Origin: Planctomycetota bacterium
Lineage (GTDB): Bacteria > Planctomycetota > UBA1135 > UBA2386
Length of the DNA: 64,000 bases
Direction of reading: 5' to 3'
NCBI GenBank assembly: GCA_965223545.1
Contig: OZ245006.1
Coordinates: forward strand, 4,128,001 to 4,192,000
Below are positions 25,229 through 46,284 of the stretch, in pieces. The notes under the pieces were generated by a model. The model was not told the origin of the DNA, searched no databases, and worked only from the letters and a program-made list of their open reading frames with translations. Made by a program: the position numbers and the translations under genes. The stretch's first letter is position 1. Every line of letters begins with the position of its first letter.

Positions 25229-25359
25229 GGGTACCTCACGGAGTGGAGGGAGTTGGCGAGAACCCGACCAATGGGCGAGCGGACGGAGTGCAAGCGGGCC
25301 GACTTTTTGTCGCCGTTCTCGAACCGCGACTGCGGACGGCGGGCACCATTGACTCGACG

Positions 25360-26289: not shown

Positions 26290-26339
26290 GGAGCTTGGGC
26301 GGCGTGGTTGTTTCTGTTGACTGGAAGGAGCGAAGTTCG

Positions 26340-27332: not shown

Positions 27333-27388
27333 GCGTTCGCGGGCGGCAACGTGCGCCAGCGGGTATCGTTGCCGCCGCGGAGGTCGCG

Positions 27389-30866: not shown

Positions 30867-30939
30867 GGGTCCTTAGCTCAACGGTTAGAGCAGCCGGCTC
30901 ATAACCGGTAGGTTGTGGGTTCGAATCCCGCAGGGCCCA
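30867..30939 (+). tRNA. tRNA with CAT anticodon, probably tRNA-Ile2 (lysidine); CCA not encoded
   Basis: Acceptor GGGTCCT/AGGGCCC+A, D arm AGCTCAACGGTTAGAGC, anticodon arm GCCGG-CTCATAA-CCGGT, T loop GGTTCGAATCC. Lacks initiator features and resembles Ile2 sequences. Confidence 0.93.
30920..30939 (+). repeat. attL core (in tRNA 3' end)
   Basis: TTCGAATCCCGCAGGGCCCA, identical to 45582-45601. Confidence 0.95.
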
Positions 30940-31008
30940 TGTCCGCGGAGGGGTGTGGACGGGAGCGAGAGCGCGTCTCGCATTGGTTCTCGAAAGCGGG
31001 GGTGGGGC

Positions 31009-31030
31009 GTGTGCACTCTGGTGTGCACTC
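31009..31030 (+). repeat. Tandem GTGTGCACTC pair, putative integrase arm-type sites (left)
   Basis: GTGTGCACTC at 31009 and 31021; the same 12-bp-spaced pair occurs at 45409/45421. Confidence 0.75.
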
Positions 31031-31205
31031 TGGTGCCCCGGAGGCGCAGGTGGCGGCCGCCACCATGGCCCTTAAATGCCGCCGCCCCCACAGCCGGCAA
31101 GCACGCAGGGGCGAACAGGTTTACGGACGCCGCGCCGAAGCGCGACGTTCGGCAGCGTAGGGCGGCCGGCAGCCCGACGCAAGCGCTGACCAACAGGGGC
31201 TCGCG

Positions 31206-32573
31206 ATGAGCGCCGCCCCCAAACTTGCGACGGCCGCGCATCGCCGCCGTGTGCAGTGGGTTCCGTTGCCTCTCGGAGATCGGCACCCGGCAGCAGAATT
31301 GCTCGCGCTTGTGCGTGCCGACGTACCCGTGCCGGCGTCGCCGTCTGCGGTGGCCCATCGGCTCGGTTGCTCAGCGCGCACCGTGCGCCGTGGCATTCTG
31401 GCGGCGATGGACGACCGACTCCTCGAGGAGCACGGTGGCGTGCTCGTTCCGGGTGCGGAGTGGTCGCGCTGGTGGCACGGACGCGCGTGGGCGCCGCTGC
31501 CCATGCAGATGCTCCGGGAGGGCACCGCGGCCACTCGCCGAGCTGCAGCCGCCCTCCTGGGCGAGGCTCAGCGCGATCGTCGGGGGGTGCCTACGATCGA
31601 CGAGCTCGCGGCACGCGTCGGGGGCGGTCGCCACACGATCTACGCGGGGCTCGACCTGCTGGTGGAAGCGGGGCTGGCGGAGCCGGTCCGCTGCCATCGC
31701 CGAGGGGTTCGACTGACCCGGTTCCGGGTCACGAGTGATCTCCGGTGGTCCACTGCGCTCGCCCCTGAGCGGGCGGCAGAGCTTGGCCAACTGGCCGCCC
31801 GCCGATCGTCGGATGCCTCCCGACTGCGGGACTCTCGGGGCCGATTTGCCGCTACCGGACATGGACAAACCAGCACTCCGGGACGTGGACAAACGAGCAC
31901 GCCCCCACTACAGACTTCCAAGGAAGTACAGCCCCCACAGGCTCGCCCGCGGCTCGCAGCCGGTGGCGAGCAATCTTCTCGAAAGGGATTCAGTGGTCTG
32001 ATCGCCGTCCCCGAGGTCGTCGGTCCCGAGGCCGTCGCCGCCGCTCTCGAGCGCGTGCGCCCAGAGGGGCGGGTGTCGATCCTGGAACCCTCGCGGCCCG
32101 GTCGCCGACCGCCGCCGAAGCGCGATGCCCCGACGATCTCGGCCGCCGAACTGCGGGACGGTCTTCGCCGATCGGGCGTGCTCGAGCGGCTCGTGGCAAA
32201 GGTCCAAACTACGACCGACCCTGCAGGCACGTGCCGTGAGCTGCTGGGGCTAGCACTGGTTTTCACGGCGGGCAGTGCTAGTCGATCGGCAAGGAAGCGA
32301 AGCGAACTCGCTCGGGGGCTTGTCGCATACCGAGGCCCAAACGCGCCCGTTGAGCTGTTGGTGCTGATCTTGCACTTGGCCGCAGCATCCCCATGGAACA
32401 TCGGCGGCGCGCTTCGAGCCAAGAGGCTGCCCCGACTGATCAGCGGAGGGCTCGACCTGGCGCTTCTCGAGGACGAGGCGCCGTCGCTCGATGGTGCGTG
32501 CGCTCGGTTGCTGGCGGCTTGGGAGCGGGATGGACGGAAAGGTGCGCAGGTACGAGCAGGAGTGAGCAGATGA
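31206..32573 (+). CDS. Putative replication initiator (two HTH/wHTH motifs)
   Basis: SPSAVAHRLGCSARTVRR and PTIDELAARVGGGRHTIYAGLDLLVEAGL; internal GQTSTP repeat; ATGA-coupled to the next gene. Confidence 0.6.
   Translation: MSAAPKLATAAHRRRVQWVPLPLGDRHPAAELLALVRADVPVPASPSAVAHRLGCSARTVRRGILAAMDDRLLEEHGGVLVPGAEWSRWWHGRAWAPLPMQMLREGTAATRRAAAALLGEAQRDRRGVPTIDELAARVGGGRHTIYAGLDLLVEAGLAEPVRCHRRGVRLTRFRVTSDLRWSTALAPERAAELGQLAARRSSDASRLRDSRGRFAATGHGQTSTPGRGQTSTPPLQTSKEVQPPQARPRLAAGGEQSSRKGFSGLIAVPEVVGPEAVAAALERVRPEGRVSILEPSRPGRRPPPKRDAPTISAAELRDGLRRSGVLERLVAKVQTTTDPAGTCRELLGLALVFTAGSASRSARKRSELARGLVAYRGPNAPVELLVLILHLAAASPWNIGGALRAKRLPRLISGGLDLALLEDEAPSLDGACARLLAAWERDGRKGAQVRAGVSR
31857..31904 (+). 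repeat. 24-bp tandem repeat inside the rep-like gene (iteron-like)
   Basis: GGACATGGACAAACCAGCACTCCG / GGACGTGGACAAACGAGCACGCCC, 20/24 identical. Confidence 0.7.
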
Positions 32574-33520
32574 CGACCAATGACGACAACCGAACGTTGA
32601 CCGACGAAGAAGTGCAGGAACTCCGACAACTGAAGGAACTCCTGCCTGAGCAGACGTACGGAGGCTACACAGCTCATCCGGCAGCAGAGCTGTTCCCTGG
32701 ACTTCCAGGTGACGAGCTAGGGGAGCTGGCGCAGGACATCGCGAAGAACGGGCAGAGGTTCCCGATCTTCTTGTGGCGCGGGCAGGTCTTGGATGGCCGG
32801 AGTCGGCTTTCAGCGTGCGCGCAAGTTGGGGTGGAGCCGTGGACGGAGGATGTCACCGAGCAAGTCGCGGACCCGTTCGAGTTCTCGGTTTCGGCCAACC
32901 TTCACCGCCGGCACCTGACGATTGGCCAGCGGGCCGTGATCGCCCAAGTTCTGGAACAGCGCTACAAGGAGCAAGCTGCGTCCGCCAGCACTCGGGGGGC
33001 GTTGGGTGGAAGGGGTCGCAAGAAAGCTGTTGTCAAATCTGACAACAGCTTTCCTGGCGAGGCGAGTAGCGCGAGCAATGGGCCTGCGAACCATTCCCGG
33101 GCCAGAGCGGCAAGACGCATGCGCATCAGTGAGGGGGCAGTTGCTCAGGTCAACATGATCAAGGAGGGTGCGCCGGATCTTCTTCCCGAGGTCGCATCAG
33201 GAGGGCGCTCCATCAACTCCGCCTTGACCGAGATGAGAGCTCGCGAGCCACAAGGCCAACCGAAACGGAGTGCCAAGCGTCGCGCTGAGCATCGCAAGAA
33301 GGCCGCCCCCGCGACCACCGGCGTCGTCGCTGATGAGGTGATGCTCAAGGTGATCGATCGCTTTCGCGAGTCGGCTGAGTCACCCGGTACGAAGCTGCAG
33401 GCCGCTGAGGAGTTCTTGCGCTTCCTGCGCAAGTCGGCGGAGTTGGATCCCGCCGTCGTGGCGCTCCTCGATGTTGCGTTGCCGCTGCTGGCGCGCGCTG
33501 GTGCTGAGACCAGCGCGTGA
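32570..33520 (+). CDS. Phage-type ParB/Srx N-terminal domain protein with HTH
   Basis: HPAAELFP...ELAQDIAKNGQRFPI...VLDGRSRLSAC...SANLHRRHLTIGQRA; ATG 32570 overlaps the rep stop. Confidence 0.8.
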   Translation: MTTNDDNRTLTDEEVQELRQLKELLPEQTYGGYTAHPAAELFPGLPGDELGELAQDIAKNGQRFPIFLWRGQVLDGRSRLSACAQVGVEPWTEDVTEQVADPFEFSVSANLHRRHLTIGQRAVIAQVLEQRYKEQAASASTRGALGGRGRKKAVVKSDNSFPGEASSASNGPANHSRARAARRMRISEGAVAQVNMIKEGAPDLLPEVASGGRSINSALTEMRAREPQGQPKRSAKRRAEHRKKAAPATTGVVADEVMLKVIDRFRESAESPGTKLQAAEEFLRFLRKSAELDPAVVALLDVALPLLARAGAETSA

Positions 33521-33695
33521 CCCGCGCCCGGTTTCATCGGGGGGAAACGGAGCCCAATGTGGGTGTTCCTGTAGCCCGCTTTGACGGTGAGAAGCGGTCG
33601 GGTTTGCTGACGGAGGATTCTCTGGGTGCGTGGATGGGCCGCAACACCAGTCGTCAATTCAGGTTATGCCTCCTGAAACGACAAACGTTGCGATT

Positions 33696-33738
33696 TTGAG
33701 GATCCTCACTTGAAGTTGAGGATCCTCACTCATAACCT
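33696..33738 (+). promoter_or_regulatory. Two palindromic operators overlapping a sigma70-type promoter
   Basis: TGAGGATCCTCA at 33697-33708 and 33717-33728; TTGAAG(33710-15)-N17-TAACCT(33733-38). Confidence 0.75.
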
Positions 33739-33746
33739 GCTTGGAG

Positions 33747-34229
33747 ATGGCACGAACGAACTTCTACATCAAGGACGAGGTCCGCGAGCGCATGCGGGAG
33801 GCGAGTCACGTGAACTGGTCACGGGTGGCCTCCGCAGCGATCGAAGCCAAGCTCGCGGAGCTGAACCGCGAGAAAGAGATAGCTATGACCGATCAGCAAG
33901 TCGTCGACCGCATCCGGGCGAGCAAGAACATGCAAGAAGACACCGACCAGAAGGAAGGATTCGACGCGGGCGTCCAGTGGGCAAAGCTGGCGGCCGAGTG
34001 GCGGCACTTCGAGCGCCTCAGCAAGATCAACTCTGCCGACTCGCCTGATGACTACCCAGGTGACTGGCTGTGGGAGACCGTCATCGGCCCGGACGAGGGC
34101 AGCCGACCTCGTCGCGACGACGTGGAGGCGCTGTTCGGCGAGGGGATCGCGGATCCGTCGCACTCGTTCGTGGAGGGCTTCATCGAGGGCGCCCTGACCG
34201 TCTTCGAGAACGTCAAGGAGCAGCTCTAA
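33747..34229 (+). CDS. Ribbon-helix-helix (CcdA/CopG-like) N-terminus plus unknown acidic domain
   Basis: MARTNFYIKDEVRERM...VNWSRVASAAIEAKL is a beta-helix-helix pattern. Confidence 0.75.
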   Translation: MARTNFYIKDEVRERMREASHVNWSRVASAAIEAKLAELNREKEIAMTDQQVVDRIRASKNMQEDTDQKEGFDAGVQWAKLAAEWRHFERLSKINSADSPDDYPGDWLWETVIGPDEGSRPRRDDVEALFGEGIADPSHSFVEGFIEGALTVFENVKEQL

Positions 34230-34235
34230 GCCGTG

Positions 34236-34595
34236 ATGATCGATCAGCAAGTCCTCGACCGCCTTCGGGAGAGTAAGAGCATGCAAGAAGACCTCGACCT
34301 GCACGCCGGGTTCCACTCTGGCGTCGACTGGGCCAAGCAAACGGCCGAGTGGGTGCATCTAGAGCGCCTTAGCAAGATTTGCCCAACCGACCTGCCCGGC
34401 GATGGCGCCGGAGATTGGCTTTGGAGCGAGATCATGGCGCCAGGAGAGAGTCGGAGTGGCAGTGTTCCCCGCGAGGAACTTGATGCGTGCTACGGCCTTT
34501 CCGAGAACGCTCACGATGCTTCGCATTTGTTCTTGGCCGGATTCATCGAAGGCGCCGAGGCCGTCTTTGCGAACGTCAAGGAGCAGATCATTTAG
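34236..34595 (+). CDS. Stand-alone paralog of the C-terminal domain of the upstream gene
   Basis: MIDQQVLDRLRESKSMQED...ERLSKI...GDWLW...GFIEGA..VFANVKEQ aligns with MTDQQVVDRIRASKNMQED...ERLSKI...GDWLW...GFIEGA..VFENVKEQ. Confidence 0.8.
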   Translation: MIDQQVLDRLRESKSMQEDLDLHAGFHSGVDWAKQTAEWVHLERLSKICPTDLPGDGAGDWLWSEIMAPGESRSGSVPREELDACYGLSENAHDASHLFLAGFIEGAEAVFANVKEQII

Positions 34596-34720
34596 GGCTC
34601 CCGGGAGCGAGGTTGGGGCCGCCGACACGCGGTCCCCTGCTGTGAGGATGTGGTAGCTCATCGCTACGGACTGCGATGAACTCTCGCGGCAGCTTGTTCT
34701 GACTCAGCTCTCGGCATGCC

Positions 34721-34758
34721 GGGGCCGCGCACACGTGCAGGGTGCGCGGCCCCTTTTT
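34721..34758 (+). terminator. Intrinsic terminator
   Basis: Perfect 12-bp stem GGGGCCGCGCAC/GTGCGCGGCCCC, 9-nt loop, TTTTT. Confidence 0.85.
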
Positions 34759-34790
34759 GGTTCCGACGCCGGCTCCTACAGCGACGACGG

Positions 34791-35429
34791 CTACTGAGCG
34801 GCAAGCGCATCTACAAGTTTCGCGGCGGCCAGCACGTTCGCTGCGAACATGCCGCCGAGAGCCCCGGCCAGCCTTGCTGCAGACGCTCGTGCTGCCTTGC
34901 GCTCGTTCTCGAGGCCTTCGATGTAGTCACGGAGGCTCCAATGGATCTCAAACCCTGGAACTTCGCGAACGGGGTCCAGCAGGAACCAGCTCTTTGCAAG
35001 GACGATAAAGCGGTCGGCCTGGATCCCCCCAGGTCCGCCCGACATGTACAGAACCCGGAGCCCATCGACTCCTGAACCCGGGATGGGCCGGCTAGAGGCA
35101 CGCTCGTCGCCGGGACGTCGGTCGACGAACTGGACGCACTGACTCTTCACCAGCCAGGTGATCTGCTTGTAGCGCGCAGAAAAGCCCTCAGCGGCCGCGT
35201 AGCTGTGCAGTGCACCAGACAGGCCCAGTAGTAGCTGGACCCCGATCTGAATGTTGAGGGTCCATTCCGCAACGGTTGGCCAGCTCGCTGCCTTGGTGCT
35301 CACCAAGATCGTTCCGAGCAAGGTGACGGTGCCACCCGCGAAGAGAGCCCAACTCAGCACCCGTACTAAGGTGCTCAGCCTTGGTGGGCGCTTTGCTTGC
35401 TCGCTCAACCCGCTGCTCATGTCGCTCAT
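34791..35429 (-). CDS. Hypothetical membrane protein (accessory cargo; the only antisense gene in the element)
   Basis: 212-aa ORF with two N-terminal hydrophobic helices and a hydrophobic C-terminus; lower-GC codons. Confidence 0.55.
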   Translation of the reverse strand: MSDMSSGLSEQAKRPPRLSTLVRVLSWALFAGGTVTLLGTILVSTKAASWPTVAEWTLNIQIGVQLLLGLSGALHSYAAAEGFSARYKQITWLVKSQCVQFVDRRPGDERASSRPIPGSGVDGLRVLYMSGGPGGIQADRFIVLAKSWFLLDPVREVPGFEIHWSLRDYIEGLENERKAARASAARLAGALGGMFAANVLAAAKLVDALAAQ

Positions 35430-35848
35430 TGGTTGCCTACGCTAACGTCTCGGGGGTGGCTTGACCCACACCCTACCGGTCCACGAAAGCTCTGGCGCTC
35501 TCAGGCGAGCCAAGAGCGAACCGAGCGACTTCGTGGACTGATCGACGAGCCAAGGGAAGGCGACCCAAGCAGCGACTGGCTCAGCGGTCTGGTCGCCGCC
35601 ATCCCGCAGCTCGAGCGCGTGATCGATGAGGACTCACCGATCGAGGTGGCGTTCTTCGAGTTTGTGATCGCGGGCTTTCTAAGCGGTGCAGTGCCCGAGG
35701 CGATGGAGTGCGAGGAGTGAGCCGGTCCCGGTCGAAGACGATTGTTGTTGGCAATCTCGCGGCAAAGTCTCGTCAATAACTCTTATAGTCGGCTTTTTCG
35801 GGGTCGCGGGGTCTACAACTCGCTTGTTGGTTGTGGCATATCAGACGC

Positions 35849-38593
35849 ATGCCGACCGTTGAGCAGCTGCGACTTGACATTGACGCGCGGGGGGCTGCGC
35901 GAGGCGGACGCGAGGCAGCCCGAGCCACCGATCGAGTTGCGGCGAGCGCGAAGCGCGCCGATCGCGCCGTCAACAAGTTCGACGGTGAGCTGCGCACGAT
36001 GGGCCAGACGACTCGCTCGCTGCTCGGCCCGTTGCTCGGTCTGGGAGGCGCGTTCACCGGTATCGCCGCCGCACGCTCGGCATTCGGCACGCTCTCGAGC
36101 TTCGACGGTGGGGTTGCGTCGCTGCGTGCGCTGACCGAGGCGACATCCGCGAGCGCCGAGCTAGCCACAGCGGAGATGGTCGAGCTCGAAGAGGCCGCGC
36201 GCGGCGTAGGCGCTTCCACGCGCTTCTCTACAAACGAGGCGATCACGGGCCTCGAGGGTCTGCGGCGTGCTGGTCTCTCGACCCGAGAGGCAATCGCGGC
36301 CATTGGACCTGCTGCGGACATCGCGGTCGTTGGCAAGCTAGGCTTCGCCGAAGCGGCCGATCTAGCAGCTGCGACGATGCGGCAATTCCAACTGCCGGCC
36401 GGGGAGATCCGAGTCGCGCTGGAGCAGCTGAACGCGGCCGCGGTGCGCTCGAACACCGGCGTCGCGGAGCTGAAAGAAGGCTTTCGAGTTGCTGCCCCCC
36501 TCGCGCATCAACTCGGTGCCGACGTCGCCGAGGTCGGCGGCATCCTCGGCATACTCGCAGACTCTGCGATCAAGGGCTCGGAAGGCGGAACCAAGTTCGC
36601 GTCATCGATGGCGGCGTTGCTGGCGCCAAGCCGTGAGGCTCAAGAGATCCTCGATGGCGTTGGCCTTTCCGCCGATCGAATCGCCGCCTCGCTTGGCGAT
36701 CCCGCGCACTTGTTCCGTGAGTTGGGGCAGGCAGGACTCTCGGCCTCTGAGTCAGTTCGCATCTTCGGCCGCGAGAACGCCGCCGCCGCCGCCATTTTGC
36801 AAGAGAACGCGGACCGTGCGATCGAACTCACAGCCGCGATCCGAGAGTCGAGCGGCGAGATGCGCCAGATGGCGGAGACCAGCGCCGACTCGCTCCAGGG
36901 GAAGGCCACGGAGCTCGAGAGCGCCATCGAGGCATTGACGATCGCGCTTGGTCAGAGCGGGCTCACAGCCGCGCTCACGTCGACGGTCGAGGGCATGACC
37001 GCCGTCGTCCGCGAGTTGGGCGGGCTCGACAAGTCGATGGCGTCCGCGAGCCTCACTGTGTCGACGACCGCCGACGCCGTGCGGACTCTTGCGCTTGTTC
37101 TTGGTGGTGCAGGGCTCGTGGCCGCACTCGGGAAAGCCCAGGCCGCGATGACGGCTCTGGACGCGGCGACGAAGATCAACCCGGTGCTCTTGTGGGGGAC
37201 GGCGATCGGCGTCGCAGCGTCAACCGTTCTCGAGTTCACCAGCAACGCGGCCAAGGCAGAAGAGGCTGCGGCCCAGCTCAATGCCGAGCTTGCGCGACTC
37301 GACAAGCAACGTGAGACCAACATCGCGGGCTTCCTGGGCAAGTTGGAGCCTGACCTGTCCGGTGTGCGCAGCGGGGCAGACATCTTGCAGGATGTGCTCG
37401 GAAGCAGTGTGCTGCCGAGTCCGGACGAGTTTCGCCAGCGCTTGCAGGAGGGGCTGGGGCAATCGCGCGAGATCATCGGCGAGGAGATCCGGGGGCTCCA
37501 ACAGACGTTGGACAACCTGTTCGAGGCGCTGGGTGATCGCTCGGTAAGCGCGCGTCAGCAGGACGCGTTTCGCGAAGGCATCGAGCAGACGAAGGCAGAG
37601 ATCGAGGGCCTCATCGCAAAGTACGATGAGCTGACGCAGACGAACGCTGCCGCTCTTCAAGCGGAGTTCGATCGGCAGAAGGCGATCGCTGACGCCGAGC
37701 AGGCGCGACAAGCCGCGGTCGCCGCAGCTGAGGCCGAGAAGGCGGCGATCGAGGCGACTGCAACCACGTTGCAGGAGATCACGGACCAGCTTCGGCTCGA
37801 GGCCGAGCTTGCGGGGTTGAACGCGGCCGAGCGCGCGCGGCTCCTGGCCACTCGCCAGGTCGAAGAGATCATCGCTGCCTCAGGCATCACCAGTGAGGAG
37901 GAGCGTAACCGCCTGCTCAAGGAGCAGATCGATCTCGTCAACGAGTTGATCGACCTGCGGTCGCAACGTGAGGAGGAAGCCCGGCGCGCCGACGACGAGA
38001 GGTTTCAGGCGAGCGTGCCGCAGCTTCGCGGGACCTACAGCGAGGTCGGTCAGCGGCCGCTCTCACAGGAGAGCGAACTCGCGTTGGGGCAGGTCGGCAA
38101 ATCCGCTGGCCGGGCGATCTCTGAGGGTCTTTTGGAAGTCATCGAGGGTTCCGGTGATCTCGAAGACATTGGCAAGTCGATCCTCCGACAGATCTCGGAG
38201 AGCGCTTACGAGAACTTCGTCACGAAGCCGCTTGCCAACCTGGGACAGGAGCTCCTGATCGCGCTGGGCGAGGGAGTCGGAAACGCGCTCTCGGGCAACA
38301 CGTCTGCAAGCTTGCTCGGCGGGAGCCCCGCATCGTCTTCCTCGAACCCCTATTCCGGATCGCAGGGTGTTTCGCCGCCGGCGCGCGCCTTGTTCGAGCC
38401 CCGCGTGCCTCTCCCGTTCTCTGGAGCACCGACGTTCCCGGATGGCTCTCGCGTTGGCGCGTCTCCGCAGGGCCAGCCAAGTCGCAGCACCGCTCCTACG
38501 ACCATCATCGTGCAAAGCATCGACCAGGCTGTGCGTACGAAACGCCAGATCGATGAGCAGCGCCGCCGCGACATCATGGGGAGGCGTCGGTGA
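35849..38593 (+). CDS. Phage tail tape-measure protein (914 aa)
   Basis: LRLDIDA start; TP901-type core (LEEAARGVGASTRFSTNEA...LRRAGLS...AAVRSNTGVAEL...LADSAIKGSEGGT...IFGRE...MAETSADSLQG..TELESA); TM-like stretch; coiled coil; lambda-H-like C-terminus (DIGKSILRQI...TKPL). Confidence 0.92.
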   Translation: MPTVEQLRLDIDARGAARGGREAARATDRVAASAKRADRAVNKFDGELRTMGQTTRSLLGPLLGLGGAFTGIAAARSAFGTLSSFDGGVASLRALTEATSASAELATAEMVELEEAARGVGASTRFSTNEAITGLEGLRRAGLSTREAIAAIGPAADIAVVGKLGFAEAADLAAATMRQFQLPAGEIRVALEQLNAAAVRSNTGVAELKEGFRVAAPLAHQLGADVAEVGGILGILADSAIKGSEGGTKFASSMAALLAPSREAQEILDGVGLSADRIAASLGDPAHLFRELGQAGLSASESVRIFGRENAAAAAILQENADRAIELTAAIRESSGEMRQMAETSADSLQGKATELESAIEALTIALGQSGLTAALTSTVEGMTAVVRELGGLDKSMASASLTVSTTADAVRTLALVLGGAGLVAALGKAQAAMTALDAATKINPVLLWGTAIGVAASTVLEFTSNAAKAEEAAAQLNAELARLDKQRETNIAGFLGKLEPDLSGVRSGADILQDVLGSSVLPSPDEFRQRLQEGLGQSREIIGEEIRGLQQTLDNLFEALGDRSVSARQQDAFREGIEQTKAEIEGLIAKYDELTQTNAAALQAEFDRQKAIADAEQARQAAVAAAEAEKAAIEATATTLQEITDQLRLEAELAGLNAAERARLLATRQVEEIIAASGITSEEERNRLLKEQIDLVNELIDLRSQREEEARRADDERFQASVPQLRGTYSEVGQRPLSQESELALGQVGKSAGRAISEGLLEVIEGSGDLEDIGKSILRQISESAYENFVTKPLANLGQELLIALGEGVGNALSGNTSASLLGGSPASSSSNPYSGSQGVSPPARALFEPRVPLPFSGAPTFPDGSRVGASPQGQPSRSTAPTTIIVQSIDQAVRTKRQIDEQRRRDIMGRRR

Positions 38594-38880
38594 CCGACGG
38601 ACAGAACGCGACGCTGCAGGACGCGGTCACGACGATCGTCGGGCAGCTCATGGCGTGGGCCGCGGAAGTGCGCAAGCTTCGACCCGCTGAGCGCGACGGT
38701 CGCATTGCGGAGATGCGGCAGCGGATGAGCGTGTTCGCCGCGGCTCAGCACCAAGCGCTGGAGGAAGCCAGTGCAGCCGGCGACAGGGAGGGCATCGCAA
38801 GCCACTCGCTCATGTCGTCCATGGCCGAGCGACTCGCGGAACAGCTGGGCGACTGGCTCGATCAGCCCAATCGAAACTGA
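38590..38880 (+). CDS. Hypothetical helical protein coupled to the TMP gene
   Basis: GTGA overlap with the TMP stop; GGGAGG RBS. Confidence 0.7.
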   Translation: MTDGQNATLQDAVTTIVGQLMAWAAEVRKLRPAERDGRIAEMRQRMSVFAAAQHQALEEASAAGDREGIASHSLMSSMAERLAEQLGDWLDQPNRN

Positions 38881-38922
38881 GGGCCCATAAGGCCAATTGA
38901 GGAAACGTCAGGACGAGACACG

Positions 38923-39909
38923 ATGCCACGACGCCAGCAGACCGTTGCACAGGCGCGCGCCGAGCAGGCACGCGAAGCCCAAGCCGATCGAGACCGCCAC
39001 GACGCGGCCAAGGAGCGCGACCTTCGCGCGCGCGCATGGGTGCACTGGGGCCAGGGCTCGGCACGCCTCGCTCTCGCGGAGGGCGACACGAGCTCGGCCA
39101 GCTTCTTCGCCAGCAAACTCGCGGCGCCGCACCGCGAACTCACGGCCGAGCTGGCGAGGATTCGCGACGATTCGCGGCTGACCGCCGAGGGCAAGCGCGA
39201 TGCTGTCGCGGCGGTGGCCAAGCGGATCCGTGCGCGCTTCGACGACAGCGGCGATCCGCTGCACGTTGTGCGGCGCAAGATCGAGCAGCACGCGGCACAG
39301 GCCAAGGACGCGACGGCCGCCCTCCAAAGTCTCGTGCGGCAGCGAGCTCTCGGAGTTCGCCGGGAGAACTTCTACGATTCGGCTCGAGCGATCGCTGACT
39401 CCGAAGCGTTCGCGCGGCTCGCTGCGAAGGAACAGGTGGCGCGCATCGCCGATGCCGAAGCATCCGGCGACGTCCGCACCTTGTTGGCTGCCGCTGAGGC
39501 CTCGGCGTGGTCCGGTGTCGTCGAGGAGTGCAGGGAGCGCACCATGCGGACGCTCACGTCGTTGGTCGCCGGCGAGGAGGCGCGCGAGGTTGAGACCCTG
39601 TCGGCACAAGCGACCATCGCCGAGCAACAGCTCGCCGCAGCGCTTGGTGGCCTCGAGCTGCTGGCGGCGGCACCACGGCTCGGGCTCGGCAAGGGGCGTG
39701 ATGGCGACGACGTTCTCGCTGACGCCAGCCTGGTGAGTGCGGGGTACCTCCTCAAAGCCGACGCGGAAGGCGTGTCGCCCGACTTGCTCGATCCCACACC
39801 ACTGACTTCCGAACGGCGGCCGCAGACGGCGGAAGATCGCTTGCAGGAGCACTACGAACGACAAGTCGAGCGTCAGGTGGGCCCCGCCGTTGGCGCAGAC
39901 GCGCCGTGA
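38923..39909 (+). CDS. Hypothetical Ala-rich coiled-coil protein (328 aa)
   Basis: Long ORF with AGGA RBS, same strand as the operon; no recognisable family. Confidence 0.7.
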   Translation: MPRRQQTVAQARAEQAREAQADRDRHDAAKERDLRARAWVHWGQGSARLALAEGDTSSASFFASKLAAPHRELTAELARIRDDSRLTAEGKRDAVAAVAKRIRARFDDSGDPLHVVRRKIEQHAAQAKDATAALQSLVRQRALGVRRENFYDSARAIADSEAFARLAAKEQVARIADAEASGDVRTLLAAAEASAWSGVVEECRERTMRTLTSLVAGEEAREVETLSAQATIAEQQLAAALGGLELLAAAPRLGLGKGRDGDDVLADASLVSAGYLLKADAEGVSPDLLDPTPLTSERRPQTAEDRLQEHYERQVERQVGPAVGADAP

Positions 39910-39944
39910 CTGGCAAGGAATCTTCAATCGGAGGTTACACAGCG

Positions 39945-40358
39945 ATGACAGCACAGCAGAAGTACGACGCCATGCGCGCGCACGCGCCCTCACAACCAGT
40001 CCCTCCTGACGGGAAGCCTCTGGCCGGTGAAGTGGTTTGGGACCTCGCGCAAGCGCGTTGGCGACGGCTTCCGGCGGTTGATGCCAGGGAAGGCGTGGCC
40101 GTCGGCATCTACGCACGCAAGAGCCCGAGCGGAGTCACGACAGCCAACCCCGCTGGCAAGGCTTGGGTGCGCGACGTCGCATCCGCAGCGACCTACTTCG
40201 TCGATGCGAACGACGCCGAGGAGATGATCGCCGCTGGCCTCGCCGAGATCGTCGACGCGCACGAGGAGCGCGAGCGGGCCGAGGCAGCCGTCGCCGCGGA
40301 AGAGGCGGCCGGCCGCGATGCGATGGCGAATGTTCGCGCGGCACGAGGAGGACCGTAG
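39945..40358 (+). CDS. Hypothetical phage-type protein
   Basis: GGAGG RBS; motif YFVDANDAEEMIAAGLAEIV resembles small proteins of phage head gene clusters. Confidence 0.65.
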   Translation: MTAQQKYDAMRAHAPSQPVPPDGKPLAGEVVWDLAQARWRRLPAVDAREGVAVGIYARKSPSGVTTANPAGKAWVRDVASAATYFVDANDAEEMIAAGLAEIVDAHEERERAEAAVAAEEAAGRDAMANVRAARGGP

Positions 40359-40547
40359 GTGCCCGACGAGCCGGAGAGGCTACGGCGCTTGAGTCCGCGG
40401 CGGGGTGTCGCCCAGTTCATGAGTGTCGAGGAGCTGGTTGAGGAAATGCGGCGGCGCTATCCCGACCAGTTCTTCCGCGGCTCCGAGCTCGAGTGGCGTC
40501 AGCGAACGACTGTTGTCGCGCGGAGGCGCGCGAGGCGCTGGCGGTGA
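40359..40547 (+). CDS. Small hypothetical protein
   Basis: GAGGAGG RBS; abuts the previous stop and overlaps the next start (GTGA). Confidence 0.5.
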   Translation: MPDEPERLRRLSPRRGVAQFMSVEELVEEMRRRYPDQFFRGSELEWRQRTTVVARRRARRWR

Positions 40548-41014
40548 GCGACCGCGACGAGCGGGGCAGGTTCAAGCCGGGCTGCCGCGGCGGTCCGGGC
40601 GCGGGCAACGTCCGGTATGTCACCGTGATGCGGGCCGCGATTCGCGAGGCGGTCAACGCCGGCGAGGTGCGGGAGGTGCTGCGAGCGATGCTGACGGCCG
40701 CGAAGAAGGGCGACACGGCCGCGTCAAAGTTGCTTCTCGAGTACGGCCTGGGGAAGCCGACGGCGATCGCTGCGGACCCCACAGGCGTCGAGCTGCCGAA
40801 GCTCGACAGCGTCAGCGCATGCGTCGAGGCCGGCGAGCGGCTCACCGCGGCCGTCTTGCGTGGTGAGCTCGCAGCGGCCGATGCCGAGCGGCTGGCTCGG
40901 ATCATCGACGTCGCCCAGCGCGGGCTCGAGGCGATGGAGGTCGGCGCACGGCTTGATGAGATCGAGGGCGCGCGCGTCTTCTTGAAGCTCGAGGCGGGAG
41001 GTCTTCGTGCCTAG
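40544..41014 (+). CDS. DUF5681-like / small terminase-like protein
   Basis: RDERGRFKPGCRGGPG N-terminus, then helical AAKKGDTAASKLLLEYGLGKP. Confidence 0.65.
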   Translation: MSDRDERGRFKPGCRGGPGAGNVRYVTVMRAAIREAVNAGEVREVLRAMLTAAKKGDTAASKLLLEYGLGKPTAIAADPTGVELPKLDSVSACVEAGERLTAAVLRGELAAADAERLARIIDVAQRGLEAMEVGARLDEIEGARVFLKLEAGGLRA

Positions 41015-41351
41015 TTGGCGGCAGCGGCTGCGTCGCTTGGGGCCGCAGATCGATGACCTCGAGCAGAGCGCATGGTGCGTTCGCGCGGCTCGCGGCGTGC
41101 CCTCCTCGAGCGATCGCGAGGAGAGTTGGCGGCTTCGCATGGACTTGTTCGGCGTGATGGCGTTCCTGGACTACCCGCACGAACCAAACCACGAACCTGC
41201 TCCGGACGTCGCCGAGGCCACCGCAGCGGTTCTGGGCCTCGATTGGCCCGAGCACGAGCCCCACCCGCGCGGCTTGACGCTGCAGCAGCTGCGCGGCCAC
41301 CTGAACGTCCTACGGATGGAGCTACCGCACCATGAAGACGGCCACGCCTGA
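41007..41351 (+). CDS. Hypothetical protein
   Basis: GGGAGG RBS; overlaps both neighbours. Confidence 0.6.
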   Translation: MPSWRQRLRRLGPQIDDLEQSAWCVRAARGVPSSSDREESWRLRMDLFGVMAFLDYPHEPNHEPAPDVAEATAAVLGLDWPEHEPHPRGLTLQQLRGHLNVLRMELPHHEDGHA

Positions 41352-41538
41352 TCGTCGCGACCGGACATCGGTCGCTCTCCCTCGCCGTCTCCGCGACGAG
41401 TTGCACCGGACCGCAGCATCAATCTCAGAGGCCCGTGGCGGCAGCCGCGTCGCGTTGGCCGAAGTCATCGCGCTCGGCGTCCGCGAGCTGAGTCGACGCT
41501 GCCCGTCGTGCTGGCGACCACCCGAAGCGCATAACTGA
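41332..41538 (+). CDS. Small RHH-like DNA-binding protein
   Basis: RTSVALPRRLRDEL...ALAEVIALGV; last gene before the terminator. Confidence 0.55.
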   Translation: MKTATPDRRDRTSVALPRRLRDELHRTAASISEARGGSRVALAEVIALGVRELSRRCPSCWRPPEAHN

Positions 41539-41553
41539 ACTCACTCCAGGAGT

Positions 41554-41602
41554 GCGGGCGTCGCCTTGGCCTCGGCGGTCGGGGCGGCGCCCGCTTTTTC
41601 TT
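41554..41602 (+). terminator. Intrinsic terminator ending the TMP operon
   Basis: GCGGGCGTCGCCTTGGCC...GGTCGGGGCGGCGCCCGC stem (with G-U pairs) followed by TTTTTCTT. Confidence 0.8.
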
Positions 41603-41611
41603 GCCAGACTC

Positions 41612-41640
41612 TTGACACGCCAGCGCCGTTCTGATAACGC
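41612..41640 (+). promoter_or_regulatory. Candidate sigma70 promoter for the recombinase operon
   Basis: Perfect TTGACA (41612-17), 17-bp spacer containing TGn, imperfect -10 TAACGC. Confidence 0.5.
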
Positions 41641-41746
41641 TCATTGCGTCCACGCTGAGATCGGCTCGGCACTCGGACAAAGAATCGGCCCCCGGGGGTG
41701 CGCTAACACCCACCGAGAGCCTAACCCGCAAAGTGAGGAAAGCACG

Positions 41747-42028
41747 ATGCAGGCTGAGCGTAAACCTAGCGCTCTCGTTGGTTTCGGCCAACTGTTGGCT
41801 TCGCGTCTCGAGGAACTCGAGCGCAAGCACCCCAACCCCGACCACGCCGCGCGGATCGAGGAGCTCGTCAACGAGCTGGCGAGACGCTTTGAGATGCATC
41901 CGGAGATCGACGCGAGCACCTCGGCGCCGGCGTGGCGCCTTGTCGACACGATGACCGCACACGACATCGCGCGGCTTCGGGTTCGCACCGTCACGATGCT
42001 GCAGCCGATCGAGGGAGGTTCGCGATGA
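41747..42028 (+). CDS. Hypothetical protein (93 aa)
   Basis: GAGGAA RBS; ATGA-coupled to the recombinase. Confidence 0.65.
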   Translation: MQAERKPSALVGFGQLLASRLEELERKHPNPDHAARIEELVNELARRFEMHPEIDASTSAPAWRLVDTMTAHDIARLRVRTVTMLQPIEGGSR

Positions 42029-43023
42029 CCGCCATCGCACTCGCGGCACCCGCTCCCGACCCGCGCGACGTTCCTGCGGTGCTTCAGCGCGAGCTGGGCG
42101 AGGACTGGTTGCGCGGCAAGAGCCCTGCGACCATCGCGGCATACCGCGGCGACCTTCGGCAGTTGGCGCTCTGGCTCGAGCTGCCCGGCGGAGAACAGGC
42201 CACGCTCGGCTACGTGACGCGACTCAGCTCTGTCGCGTTGAATGGGCTGGCTTTGCGCTGGCGCGGCGCGATGACCGAAGCGGGCCTGTCCAGCTCGACC
42301 ACCAATCGCAGGCTCGCATCGCTTCGTTCAGCGGTCAGGTTCGCGCGCATGCTCGGCATGACGTCGGCGACGATCGATGTCGCTGGCGTCCGACCTGAGC
42401 CTCGACGCGACAGCCGAGGCCCGACCGCAACCGAATTTCGAACGATGCTCGAGGCGCTCGAGCGGCGGCCCGATCACGCGCGCAAGTTGCGCCTTCGAGC
42501 GATGCTGCTTTGCCTTGGCGTGCTTGGTTTGCGTCGTGGCGAAGTCCTCGGTCTCGACCGTGAACACTGGGCCGACGGTCGCCTCATGGTGAAGCCGAAG
42601 GGTAGGCGAGAACGTCATCCCCTGACGGTGCCCCCGCTGGTGGCAACGGCGCTCGACCGATGGTGTGCGTCGTGGCCTGCGGAGGATGGGCCGCTGTTCG
42701 TCACGCTGCGCGGACGCACGACGGGTGCACGACTGTCGGCGACGGCGTTTGCCGGCTCGCTCAAGGTGCTTGGTCGCCAGGCAGGGCTCGAGCGTCCAGT
42801 GCGGCCACACGGCTTGCGACACTGCGCCGTCACGTGTGCGCTCGACACGCGCGACGGCGACTTGCGCGCCGTGAGGCGCTTTTCACGCCACGCGTCGCTC
42901 TCGATGCTGCTCGTCTACGACGACGATCGAACCGACACGTTCGGCGAGATTGCGCGCGCCGTCGAGGCCGCGCTCGTTCCGCAGGCCGTCGTCGAAGCGA
43001 CGAACGCGAAGGGAGGCGCGTGA
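42025..43023 (+). CDS. Tyrosine recombinase (Xer/resolvase-like, no arm-binding domain)
   Basis: SAM-like N-domain (SPATIAAYRGDL, SSSTTNRRLASLRS); catalytic R (GLRRGE), K (KPKG), HGLRH, FSRH, Y (VYDD). Confidence 0.92.
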   Translation: MTAIALAAPAPDPRDVPAVLQRELGEDWLRGKSPATIAAYRGDLRQLALWLELPGGEQATLGYVTRLSSVALNGLALRWRGAMTEAGLSSSTTNRRLASLRSAVRFARMLGMTSATIDVAGVRPEPRRDSRGPTATEFRTMLEALERRPDHARKLRLRAMLLCLGVLGLRRGEVLGLDREHWADGRLMVKPKGRRERHPLTVPPLVATALDRWCASWPAEDGPLFVTLRGRTTGARLSATAFAGSLKVLGRQAGLERPVRPHGLRHCAVTCALDTRDGDLRAVRRFSRHASLSMLLVYDDDRTDTFGEIARAVEAALVPQAVVEATNAKGGA

Positions 43024-43517
43024 TGGGCTGGGTCGGTGCGCGTGAACTCACCCCGGAAGAGATGGCGAAGATCAGCGAGCGGAACCGCGACCAGCTTGGA
43101 CCGCACGCGCACGAACAGCTGGCCGAAGCTCTGTTCGATGAACTCCGCGAGGTGTCGGACGCGTCGCGCGGCGACGTTGATCCCGGCACCTTCGTGCTGG
43201 CGGCGCTGGCCCGTGCGGCGCCAGGCGTCGCGAGCGGACTTGACTTCGCGATGAACTACTACCGGCATGAGCCCGAGGTGCTCAACGTCCTGGTGGGCGC
43301 TTTAACGCTGGCCGGCGACTATGAGTACATCCGGGGCAACCTGGCCGATGCGGACCCCGCGATTCGCCGTGCCCAACAGTCGGCCCTGTGGATGCTCAAG
43401 GGCATCGAGGCGGCTTTCCCAGCCGATCAGTTCGAGCCCAATCCTGGCGAAGCGCTGAGCCAACACGAGGCGCGTTTCCGAATCGACCATCAGCGTGCCG
43501 GCGGGGCCGACTTCTGA
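43023..43517 (+). CDS. Hypothetical protein (164 aa)
   Basis: GGGAGG RBS; TGATG overlap with the recombinase stop. Confidence 0.7.
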   Translation: MGWVGARELTPEEMAKISERNRDQLGPHAHEQLAEALFDELREVSDASRGDVDPGTFVLAALARAAPGVASGLDFAMNYYRHEPEVLNVLVGALTLAGDYEYIRGNLADADPAIRRAQQSALWMLKGIEAAFPADQFEPNPGEALSQHEARFRIDHQRAGGADF

Positions 43518-43987
43518 TGTGCGGCGGCGCGTCGGTCCGTGTTCCGGCGCGTCGCCACCCGCTCGCGCCGCATAAGCGCGATTCAGCCTTGTCGCTCGCC
43601 GGGCGGCGGCGAGGGCGCATTCGGCGCTCGCTGTTGCGCCGCGGACCGCGCTTCGCCATGGCGCCGAATGCAGCAGCCAGACGCTGCCCATCGCAGAAAG
43701 CGAAAAAAAGTTGGGGCGCACTCGTCGGCCGCCCGAGCGAACGGGTGCAACGGCAACTCTGTGCCAACCGGGAACGGGCGAGAAGGGGGTAAGTGCCTTG
43801 AGCGTGTCGGCCTACGTCACTTGGCGACGTCCTACGCCATTCCGCGTGGGCCCGTGCCGCGGCAACGTCGTGTCAAGAAGAGGATCAAACTCAACACCGA
43901 AGACTCGGCAAGACGTCGGTGGACCACTCTAGACGCGCCTTTGCGTGGCCTGGCGCTCTTGCCCTGAGCGAGGCAGTTTGAACTTCC

Positions 43988-44197
43988 ATGATCTCGATCT
44001 CACCCGCACAGCAGTTGCTCACTGTCGACCAGGTTGCGGTCGTCCTGCAGATCTCACGTCGCACGGTGTTTCGGCTGTCCGCCGATCCACGGAGTGGCTT
44101 CCCGCCCAAGTTGCGCATCCGGGGCTCGACTCGGTTTCGCAAATCGGACGTCCTTCGCTTCTGCCAGACTGGGGGCAGGGAGAGCGTCGAGAGCTGA
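43988..44197 (+). CDS. Excisionase / AlpA-like HTH (recombination directionality factor)
   Basis: LLTVDQVAVVLQISRRTVFRL...FPPKLRIRGSTRFRKSDV; TGATG-coupled to the integrase. Confidence 0.88.
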   Translation: MISISPAQQLLTVDQVAVVLQISRRTVFRLSADPRSGFPPKLRIRGSTRFRKSDVLRFCQTGGRESVES

Positions 44198-45522
44198 TGG
44201 GTCGGAGCGGCACGAATCCGTACCGCCGCCGAGGCTCGCCGTATTGGCAGATCCTCTACCGCGATGCTGAAGGACGGAAGCGACGCGAATCGACAAAGAC
44301 CGGTGACATTGTGATCGCTCGCGCAATCCTCGCGGAGCGAGTCAAGGAGGCTGCGCAAGGGCGTGTCGGGCATCGTGACGAATACGCGGCTACGCGCCGG
44401 GCGGACGTCGACGATCTGATCGAAGCGTTCTGTGAGGCCCGTCTGGGGCGAGGGATCACGCAGAAGCGGGTCAGCGATCTAGCTCGCTTCCTGCGTTCCG
44501 TGTGCTCGCGGGCCAGCGTGCGCCGTCTGGACGACGTGGACGTGGCTCGCGTGGAGCGAGTCTTGGCGACGATCCGACGGGAGCGTTCCGTCTGCACCCG
44601 GGACCACCATGCAGCCGCCCTACGAACGTTTGGCTTATGGCTCGTTCGCAGTGATCGTTGGCCAACCGATCCCTTCGCAGCGATCGAAACGCACACGCGG
44701 ACCGAAGCCGATCGCAAGTTCGACCGCCGAGCGCTTCGGCTCGAAGAGCTGGAGCTGCTTGCCGCAGCCGCCCCGCAGCGAGCAGTGCAGCGCTGGGTCG
44801 CGACGCACCCTCCCGGGTCGGACGACGATGAGGCCAAGCGGGCCTCGACGATCGAGGAACTCGAGCGGCGTGGTAGAGAGCGGGGACTGCTGTACTTGTT
44901 CCTCGCGTACACTGGCATGCGTCGAACCGCCTGTCAGCGGTTGCGATGGCGGGACGTCGTTCTCGACGGCGAACACCCTCGCGTCGTGATCCGGGCAGAG
45001 ACACAGAAGGGTCGGCGAGATCACTTCGTGCCGTTGGCTCCTTGGTTGGTGAGTGCGCTACCCGAACGCCGCCGCGAGCGTGCGCTCTGGGGTCGCCACC
45101 CGAATGGTGGTCCGCTGTCGGGGCCGGTGAGAGACAGCGACCCGCTGTTTCATGTGCCCGACAAGCTCGCGGAGCTCTTGCGCCACGACGCCGAGTTTGC
45201 GGGTTTGGGTGATCGAGACCCCACGTGGGATCGCCTCGATGCCCACGCGCTGCGCAAGTCCTGCGCGACGCTGCTGGTGGAGGCCGGAATGCCGCCCGCG
45301 ATTGCCCAGAAGGTGCTGGGGCACAAACGCATCACCACCACGATGAAGTACTACGCACGCATCGGCGACGACCTCGTACGTTCCGAGTTGGCTCGCCTGC
45401 CTGCTCCCGTGTGCACTCCCGTGTGCACTCAACCAGTTCCCGGTGAGTCAACGCATGGCACACCAGGACACACCGAGGGCGACGACGATCCGCCCCAAAC
45501 CGATGAAACGAAGACTGGATAG
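44197..45522 (+). CDS. int: Phage-type tyrosine integrase
   Basis: N-terminal arm-binding-like beta domain (YWQILYRDAEGRKRRESTKT); YTGMRR, K, HALRKS, LGH, YY; ends 59 bp before attR. Confidence 0.95.
   Translation: MGRSGTNPYRRRGSPYWQILYRDAEGRKRRESTKTGDIVIARAILAERVKEAAQGRVGHRDEYAATRRADVDDLIEAFCEARLGRGITQKRVSDLARFLRSVCSRASVRRLDDVDVARVERVLATIRRERSVCTRDHHAAALRTFGLWLVRSDRWPTDPFAAIETHTRTEADRKFDRRALRLEELELLAAAAPQRAVQRWVATHPPGSDDDEAKRASTIEELERRGRERGLLYLFLAYTGMRRTACQRLRWRDVVLDGEHPRVVIRAETQKGRRDHFVPLAPWLVSALPERRRERALWGRHPNGGPLSGPVRDSDPLFHVPDKLAELLRHDAEFAGLGDRDPTWDRLDAHALRKSCATLLVEAGMPPAIAQKVLGHKRITTTMKYYARIGDDLVRSELARLPAPVCTPVCTQPVPGESTHGTPGHTEGDDDPPQTDETKTG
45409..45430 (+). repeat. Tandem GTGTGCACTC pair, putative arm-type sites (right; inside the int 3' end)
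   Basis: GTGTGCACTC at 45409 and 45421. Confidence 0.75.
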
Positions 45523-45581
45523 CCCAATCGGGCGCGAAGTGGCACACTGTGTCACGGATGTGGAGAGGACTACGCGATTCC

Positions 45582-45601
45582 TTCGAATCCCGCAGGGCCC
45601 A
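45582..45601 (+). repeat. attR core (duplicated tRNA 3' end)
   Basis: TTCGAATCCCGCAGGGCCCA. Confidence 0.95.
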
Positions 45602-45635
45602 CGATCGCGCGGGGCTGGGAACGGAAGCGAGAGCG

Positions 45636-46106: not shown

Positions 46107-46284
46107 GGGAGCTGGCCGCCGTCGCCGGTCTCGCGCCACGCGATGCAATCACTCGCGTAGGTCGTCGGAGGTTGCCCGTACCAGGGGAGATTCTCCCGTT
46201 TGTGCCGAATGGTACCGAAAGCGTCGTGAGGGCGGGGTCGCGGTCCAGCTTGTCGCCATGCCGGTCGTCGGCGAGGATGCGGCG

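Follow-up and report, generated by a model that had tools for sequence, protein, structure and literature searches.

A lone tape-measure gene in a satellite-like element of a planctomycete, and guide-like prophage arrays that match its operon

Introduction

Experimental work on the tape measures of phage satellites is confined to the PLEs of Vibrio cholerae and dates from 2026. These elements encode their own tape measure, a tail-assembly chaperone that is conserved in all PLEs and sometimes a hub, and they form chimeric, ICP1-derived tails (PMC12987554, Nature 2026). PLE11 also encodes Rta, which blocks the tape measure of ICP1, and putative tmp genes are described in PLE-like elements and cf-PICIs (PMC12987554). 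The EPIPs of Mycolicibacterium aichiense are small prophage satellites that likewise carry a tape measure (PMC12822802, bioRxiv Dec 2025). Satellite tape measures as such are in print and no longer new. The locus considered here is a stripped-down natural case: a 14.7-kb element with a single recognisable tail gene, encoding a full-length tape-measure protein (also called the ruler below), in a chromosome that also holds a candidate helper prophage. It lies in the window, by which is meant the whole stretch of 64,000 nucleotides analysed (Planctomycetota bacterium, GenBank assembly GCA_965223545.1, contig OZ245006.1, positions 4,128,001 to 4,192,000 of the forward strand). Positions without a prefix count from the first letter of the window, and those prefixed C1 refer to the genome at large. 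On the most plausible reading, the element is a satellite-like parasite of the prophage lineage that resides alongside it, and its ruler, maintained as a functional protein, is predicted to become part of helper-type tails.

The PLEs (PLE11, PLE1 and PLE4) and the element are alike in being integrated, in having no tube, sheath or fibre genes of their own (no recognisable ones, in the case of the element) and in carrying a full tape measure related to that of the helper, and the conflict between helper and satellite would in both cases centre on that protein. The differences are equally clear. PLEs carry a chaperone and some a baseplate hub, whereas none was found in the element. The rulers of PLE and ICP1 share about 20% identity and differ by 95 amino acids (aa) in length, compared with 40% identity overall, near-identical ends and 13 aa for element and prophage. 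ICP1 is a lytic myovirus, but the candidate helper here is a temperate prophage of siphovirus type. Finally, PLE tails have been shown experimentally, while the element is known from its genes, among which no Rta-like inhibitor was identified. EPIPs resemble the element in being small, prophage-associated and equipped with a tape measure, yet they list a small terminase, adaptor, stopper, scaffold, capsid protein and serine integrase, none of which is recognisable in the element, and their tails are longer than those of the helper, whereas the element's ruler is of helper length.

A third system bears on the prophage and not on the element. SUSP1 directs its VIPR system against F5 satellites (bioRxiv 10.64898/2026.10.15.759431), and the prophage resembles SUSP1 in carrying 5-nt units of three fixed and two guide bases next to a Vipr-like gene, with guides that match a resident satellite in a wobble-skipping register. 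The scaffold is GGY in SUSP1 VIPR and CGC in the prophage; the target is a recombinase in the former, whereas the best targets of the prophage arrays are the tape-measure gene and the gene that precedes a DUF5681-like gene. The literature on phage satellites with tape measures or chimeric tails, taken without its supplements, yielded no case of a lone ruler or of a ruler as a guide target.

The tape measure and its counterpart in a resident prophage

The reading frame ends at 38593 on the plus strand and begins at 35831 (TTG) or 35849 (ATG), for a product of 920 or 914 aa. An earlier note on this DNA had described an intact 914-aa tape measure with a TP901-like core and a lambda-H-like C-terminus. 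The first part of this description is borne out by the open frame and by family searches. TIGR01760 matches the 914-aa protein at E 7.4e-40 (137 bits, cut-off 28.8) over aa 72-413, equivalent to positions 5-346 of the 349 in the model; PF10145 matches at E 6.3e-29 (101.7 bits against a curated cut-off of 33.2); and 16 of the 21 PHROG families that match at E<=0.001 are labelled tape measure, with 6e-45 as the best value. The second part found no support, and a lambda-H-type C-terminus was rejected, because neither Pfam nor NCBIfam has any match in the C-terminal part; a separate scan restricted to the last 214 aa (E<=0.05) was likewise empty. The core domain, the length class, the hydrophobic segments (four, at aa 57-75, 148-167, 408-434 and 443-464) and a helical C-terminal half are all held in common with canonical TP901-family tape measures (TIGR01760/PF10145). 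What sets the element gene apart from these is its setting, with no tube and chaperone genes upstream and no distal tail genes downstream.

Only two TP901-core genes are present in this genome. The second (C1:7828798-7831503) encodes the 901-aa tape measure of a 77.5-kb prophage, and in a search of 5.8 billion proteins it was the only one to span the query, with 95% coverage and 37% identity (E 1e-117). That search scored 7,996 candidates, of which 32 reached E<=0.001 to the element's tape measure; the remaining 31 cover 18-69%, the next best at E 2e-21. When residues 740-914 were searched alone (2,154 candidates), the prophage tape measure was the sole match, at 54% identity and E 7e-43. None of the 162 phage records that match the protein covers 80% or more of it (the best listed reaches 41%), of 90 further genomes in the bacterial family one has a weak tape-measure match, and a pattern scan of genome contigs for close relatives found none.

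Identity between the two rulers is unevenly distributed. It is 88% over aa 1-50 and 60% over aa 51-100, falls to 23-40% over aa 151-700, and rises again to 60% over aa 751-800 and 68% over aa 851-914. At the DNA level, likeness between the genes is confined to coding sequence, running from the ATG to the stop codon. Nei-Gojobori estimates of omega for the pair are 0.07 for codons 1-76 (dS 0.82), 0.20 for codons 751-800 and 0.22 for codons 851-914. As omega is low at a dS of 0.82, the likeness of the ends reflects purifying selection during a long separation rather than recent copying, and an average of 0.07 leaves little room for free drift in either lineage at codons 1-76. For the centre (aa 151-700) omega is about 0.5, with dS saturated at 1.4-1.7. 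The earlier note had proposed comparing ruler lengths and measuring selection: the lengths, 914 and 901 aa, proved almost equal, and constraint is evident at the ends though not in the centre. The C-terminus of the ruler resides in the tail tip in lambda, T5 and related phages, and by extension the conserved ends of both rulers are probably docking sites, with the C-terminus in the tip.

The prophage that encodes the second ruler occupies a tRNA-Asn gene (C1:7775442-7852941), is delimited by a perfect 45-bp repeat of the tRNA 3' end and has an integrase adjacent. It looks complete from its gene content. Head and packaging functions comprise small and large terminase, portal, head morphogenesis protein, scaffold and major capsid protein; neck and tail functions comprise adaptor, neck protein, terminator, tube (PF18906), chaperone, tape measure and tail-tip proteins; and a methylase, a primase and a RecE-like exonuclease are also encoded. 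The tape-measure gene has its textbook neighbours, lying behind the tube and chaperone genes. We regard this prophage as the putative helper of the element. A second link between the two is that the prophage encodes, in its early region, a 41%-identical homolog of the 162-aa RHH-like protein found in the element. In the element the gene for this protein and that for a 120-aa protein are paralogs (window 33741-34595) with 74-80% DNA likeness over two stretches; their sole other relative in the genome is the prophage gene, which directly follows the CGCNN arrays described below, and they could be a regulator common to helper and element. Three further features of the prophage may be recorded: a Doc-like toxin gene splits the tail module between two phrog_2913 genes, a 190-aa fragment-like protein with a class-I tRNA-synthetase domain is encoded before the terminase, and ORFs (open reading frames) of 1534 and 1461 aa have no family matches.

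Gene arrangement around the tape-measure gene

The earlier note had placed the tape measure at the head of its own operon, behind an AT-richer intergenic region in lieu of tube and chaperone genes. The upstream region is as described. The spacer at 35721-35848 has 54% G+C, where the element as a whole has 66% and its flanks have 68-70%, and no tube or chaperone gene was found in the element with Pfam or PHROGs, even at E values up to 5. The small ORF at 35433-35720 was considered as a chaperone and rejected, BLASTP against the prophage chaperone and its extension giving E 2.6 and 9.9. The operon itself has eight genes, the tape measure first and seven small genes behind it, with gaps between successive genes of -4, +42, -4, 0, -4, -8 and -20 nt, and a hairpin closes it. 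Because no sigma-70-like promoter is predicted for it, the first position of the tape measure is read from this layout, that is, from the gene order, the overlaps and the hairpin. Most genes of the operon are ORFans. The 328-aa protein retrieved only itself from among 1.84 billion representatives, its atlas neighbours being unnamed clusters, and a word-indexed search with the 173-aa protein returned only itself. Positions of these and the other features are collected in Table 1.

Table 1. Features of the element and its immediate borders, in window coordinates
Feature	Position	Strand	Remarks
tRNA-Met (CAT), integration target	30867..30939	+	ARAGORN; last 20 nt (30920-30939) are the left att (attachment-site) copy
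Weaker match of array C1:7791462	31115..31134	+	13/14; upstream of HTH gene
455-aa protein, weak HTH matches	31206..32573	+	internally deleted copy behind tRNA-Gln, C1:7.922 Mb
ParB-like protein, start codon uncertain	32393..33520	+	phrog_21315 2.4e-23; sisters have ParB_N-methyltransferase at this place
Tandem paralogs, 162 aa (VapB/RHH-like N-terminus) and 120 aa	33741..34595	+	41%-identical homolog in prophage early region
Divergent 212-aa gene, hydrophobic N-terminal part	34791..35429	-	73% identical copy in tRNA-Ser relic
Small acidic ORF, doubtful	35433..35720	+	88% DNA identity but frameshifted in relic; unlike prophage chaperone
AT-richer spacer before tape-measure ATG	35721..35848		128 nt, 54% G+C
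Tape-measure gene	35849..38593	+	914 aa; TP901 core aa 72-413; helper-like ends
Unique match of 9-unit array C1:7792427	37790..37815	-	17/18 positions; tape-measure codons 648-656
Four ORFan genes (96, 328, 150, 62 aa)	38590..40547	+	coupled to tape-measure gene
Match of units 1-9, 18-unit array C1:7791346	40485..40510	+	16/18; wobble-aligned to 62-aa ORF, just before DUF5681 gene
DUF5681-like protein, 156 aa (173 aa from 40493)	40544..41014	+	common to sister elements
Final two small operon genes (114 and 68 aa)	41007..41538	+
Terminator-like hairpin, 18 pairs, then T-run	41554..41594	+	closes operon
XerC/D-like tyrosine recombinase	41932..43023	+	PF00589, PF02899
Tyrosine integrase adjoining right att repeat	43945..45522	+	~40%-identical relatives in 24/90 same-family genomes
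Right att repeat	45582..45635	+	first 20 nt identical to 30920-39; 54 nt 83% alike

Prophage arrays that match the tape-measure operon

Eight arrays of CGCNN units, with 6-18 units each, lie within 1.5 kb of one another in the prophage (C1:7791346-7792813). The cluster is unique in the genome: elsewhere only chance runs of 6-8 imperfect units occur, none longer than 8, and the element has no array of six or more units, nor a solo array. The arrays begin 4 nt behind a gene for a 239-aa protein, whose best match among solved structures is Vipr of SUSP1, a weak one at E 0.023 over 66 residues. Guides were decoded with the published VIPR rule (two guide bases, then one base skipped), which is borrowed from an E. 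coli system.

Decoded in this way, the 9-unit array at C1:7792427 matches the tape-measure gene at 37790-37815 with a score of 17/18, a score found nowhere else on either strand of the 8.07-Mb contig and reached by none of 200 shuffled 9-unit guides, the maximum of which was 15. The site lies where the ruler has diverged, in its centre, and each of the eight bases that the guide skips is the third of its codon; in the prophage's own tape measure the same guide scores 13/18 at best. A second match in the same operon comes from the 18-unit array, units 1-9 of which score 16/18 at 40485-40510; its units 2-9 score 15/16 there, the only such site in the contig. That a guide-like array of the prophage matches the tape-measure gene suggests that the gene matters to the phage.

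Other matches in the element are weaker. The guide of C1:7791462 also matches the homologous site of a relic at tRNA-Gln, introduced below, but it has 10 sites genome-wide and its score is reached by 7 of 200 shuffled guides; a further match, of 11/12, lies in the ParB-like gene. As a control, the 23 eight-unit sub-guides were searched with at most one mismatch and gave six distinct genomic loci, two of which fall in the tape-measure operon, against a background in which the element amounts to 0.18% of the genome. Six of the eight arrays, taken whole, do not exceed shuffled guides in the element; the 18-unit array is one of these six, and its units 1-9 match the operon all the same. Units 8-17 of that array match 18 of 20 positions at C1:7193899-7193927, outside the element, where no tRNA and no likeness to element proteins was found within 30 kb. 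The 18-unit array thus seems to include another guide whose target is not in the element.

The element and its relatives

The element spans 30920-45601 as an island of lower G+C, bounded by tRNA-Met on the left and by a second copy of that tRNA's 3' end on the right. The exact att 20-mer occurs twice in the whole window and in none of 100 shuffles. The element is thus discrete and integrated, with att repeats and two integrases, and the frame of a satellite holds. Its contents are otherwise sparse: searches with Pfam and PHROGs, at permissive thresholds too, gave no capsid, portal, terminase, tube, chaperone, lysis or replicase family, and most genes are ORFans. The stretch occurs at 100% identity in contigs of four public runs, no RNA run being among those listed, and among the joints listed from public runs none joins the att sites; the short sides of these joints measure 18-24 letters, bar one 102-nt replacement read as a diverged relic copy.

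Among 90 other genomes of the family, 24 encode relatives of the integrase at about 40% identity; among 210 genomes sampled across the order's other families, none does. Of the 33 places listed for such relatives, 18 were fetched, picked for long contigs and each taken up to 20 kb on the element side. Homologs of the 173-aa protein (27-34% identity) are encoded in seven loci of six genomes, six of the seven with Pfam DUF5681 at E<=5e-6. These seven have a recognisable backbone of ParB_N with or without methyltransferase (6/7), DUF5681, a XerC/D-like recombinase (6/7), a primase/helicase-type replicase (6/7) and the integrase. Their cargo varies and includes TIR/ThsB, CAP12-TIR, RHS and SNF2 with a methylase. 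Across the loci L046, L055, L047 and L048 the cargo of defence type is TIR_2 with pentapeptide repeats plus a ThsB-like TIR, a CAP12/Pycsar-type TIR, a 2302-aa RHS protein, and an SNF2 helicase with ResIII and a methylase. The ParB_N and DUF5681 genes are adjacent in three of the seven sisters. In the window a block that starts with the RHH genes, takes in the tape measure and runs through the 62-aa gene lies between the ParB-like gene and the DUF5681 gene.

Assignment of the window protein to DUF5681 comes from atlas features (0.94), the Pfam match being weak (E 1.1). In the sister locus L047 the DUF5681 and ParB_N-methylase genes adjoin a large terminase (phrog_2, 4.5e-27), a proximity that hints at derivation of the pair from a packaging module.

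Two broken copies of parts of the element were found in the same genome. In the relic at tRNA-Ser (C1:6909472-6918400), window 35025-35718 recurs at 88% identity; behind it come pieces of the tape-measure N-terminus, broken up by frameshifts and by two insertion-sequence (IS) transposases (DDE_3 and DDE_Tnp_1). The relic at tRNA-Gln (C1:7921925-7922861) consists of two adjacent tRNA-Gln genes and, behind them, a copy of the left end of the element that has lost internal sequence, with 78-83% DNA identity to window 31049-31342 and 32423-32530. The element lineage has thus inserted at three tRNA genes in all, with an unbroken copy at tRNA-Met alone. The tape-measure fragment of the tRNA-Ser relic is about equally far from the genes of element and prophage, and so the relic does not date the capture of the gene.

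Discussion

We put at about even the chance that the element's tape measure competes with or replaces that of the prophage in tail assembly, with hybrid tails that would serve the spread of the element as the likely outcome. The conserved N- and C-terminal parts of the ruler would dock onto prophage tail parts, and the element would therefore need no tube, chaperone or hub of its own. Rulers of equal length would give tails of helper length, about 135 nm expected for both at 0.15 nm per residue, and the element would be packaged by the helper, perhaps aided by the ParB-like and DUF5681 genes. The prophage, for its part, may answer with a VIPR-like, RNA-guided silencer directed at the divergent centre of the element's ruler gene, an aim that would spare its own ruler. 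The proposal in its entirety, namely that of a minimal satellite with one structural gene left, which takes over helper tails and whose ruler is silenced by the helper through a CGC-scaffold VIPR guide, falls short of an even chance and is offered tentatively. Were the array really to silence the gene, two recent discoveries, chimeric tails and VIPR, would be joined in one locus, and the phage would tell its own ruler from the parasite's by a stretch of nine codons. The locus also has its candidate helper in the same chromosome and provides a clear map of which parts of a ruler are kept (both ends) and which are free to drift (the centre). It also offers a concrete set of candidate residues for the docking of rulers to the tail tip and the tail end.

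Several observations weigh against this proposal. No tape measure was found in any of the 18 sister loci, whether in tblastn searches with each ruler as query (E<=1e-3) or among the 72 ORFs compared with Pfam and the 40 compared with PHROGs, and the tape measure is therefore not a core trait of the element family. The gene sits where sisters carry TIR, RHS or SNF2 cargo, and could equally be cargo of defence type. Unlike PLE11, the element has no chaperone or hub gene that Pfam, PHROGs or BLASTP could find; nor is there a recognisable replicase. On the side of the silencer, the Vipr match is weak, the scaffold is CGC and not the published GGY, and the decoding rule comes from an E. coli system. 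As for selection, saturated dS leaves room for relaxed constraint in the ruler centre, and pairwise dN/dS is silent on which of the two lineages was constrained.

A packaging role for the DUF5681-like protein as a small terminase, of the kind by which PICI-type satellites redirect packaging, drew no support from fold searches. Its AlphaFold2 (AF2) model, built from eight sequences (pLDDT 70, pTM 0.46), found nothing at E<=0.001 with Foldseek against PDB and viral libraries, and no terminase fold; the best VIA-align hits (Z 7.0) are generic helical proteins, and a profile search of PDB returned nothing below E 0.2. BLASTP against the prophage TerS gave E 0.22, which is no likeness, and tblastn with a sister DUF5681 protein found no match in 50,697 phage records.

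The satellite setting assumed in the earlier note holds: a discrete element, att repeats, two integrases and a candidate helper speak for it. The interpretation built on it is supported in part, and the three options of that note, namely satellite-specific tails, bypass of exclusion and poisoning of helper tails, may each fit the observations. Two of the outcomes that the note had named as refuting, frequent truncation among homologs and absence of the tape measure from sister elements, are seen in part: none of the 18 sister loci carries the gene, and the copy at tRNA-Ser is truncated by IS elements.

Some of these observations lend weight to interference with tail assembly, which we consider unlikely, though it is the rival with the most in its favour. 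Here the protein would act as a poison ruler that enters the tail initiation complexes of the helper or a related phage and leads to dead-end tails, thereby protecting the host population instead of making tails for the element. The position of the gene between the ParB-like and DUF5681 genes, with TIR/ThsB, CAP12-TIR, RHS or SNF2-methylase cargo nearby in sisters that do not have these two adjacent, is what such a role would lead one to expect, as are the want of a tape measure in the sisters and of a chaperone or hub in the element, and a prophage guide against the gene fits one that harms phages. Mobile elements that block tail assembly are, moreover, in print (PMC11364771). On the other hand, full length (914 against 901 aa) and purifying selection at both ends are more than a blocker seems to need, the same layout in PLEs serves the satellite's own virions, and none of 17 element proteins tested matches a PADLOC defence model.

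A role on the side of entry is improbable as a separate explanation. Hybrid tails would in this case inject element DNA into lysogens of the helper, the divergent centre of the ruler escaping exclusion directed at tape measures. Tape measures take part in DNA entry, and the exclusion protein gp15 of HK97 reportedly targets one; conserved ends with a diverged centre are in keeping with such a role. No exclusion gene was identified in the prophage, however, and the idea refines the favoured explanation of ruler competition more than it replaces it.

Little more can be said for an inert leftover, a gene without present function that was acquired when the element recombined with a phage from the same lineage as the prophage, or that remains in an element which is itself a decayed prophage; we rate it a shade lower still. 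The wrecked copy at tRNA-Ser, with its two IS transposases and frameshifts, and the relic of the left end at tRNA-Gln speak for it, and stops are rare in DNA of 70% G+C. Even so, about 17 stops would be expected over 914 codons of random sequence of that composition and there are none, omega at the ruler ends is 0.07-0.22, starts and stops overlap tightly with those of the downstream genes, and homology to the prophage is limited exactly to coding sequence. A unique, wobble-aligned prophage guide would also have no reason to persist against a dead gene.

Least likely of all, the element would be of an integrative mobilisable or plasmid-like type that has nothing to do with phage particles, and its tape-measure-like protein would serve some other envelope-crossing process: two recombinases, a ParB-like gene and a majority of ORFans would suit this, but no relaxase or secretion-system family was matched in the element or in 72 sister ORFs, and the one protein found to resemble the ruler over nearly its full length is a canonical tape measure, encoded behind tube and chaperone genes.

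Neighbouring genes

Directly to the right of the element, window 46258-48009 encodes a protein of the CotH-kinase family with EF-hand motifs. To the left of tRNA-Met, window 25243-29827 carries a gene for an ECF-type sigma factor, followed by one for a 1156-aa protein with four CarboxypepD_reg domains.

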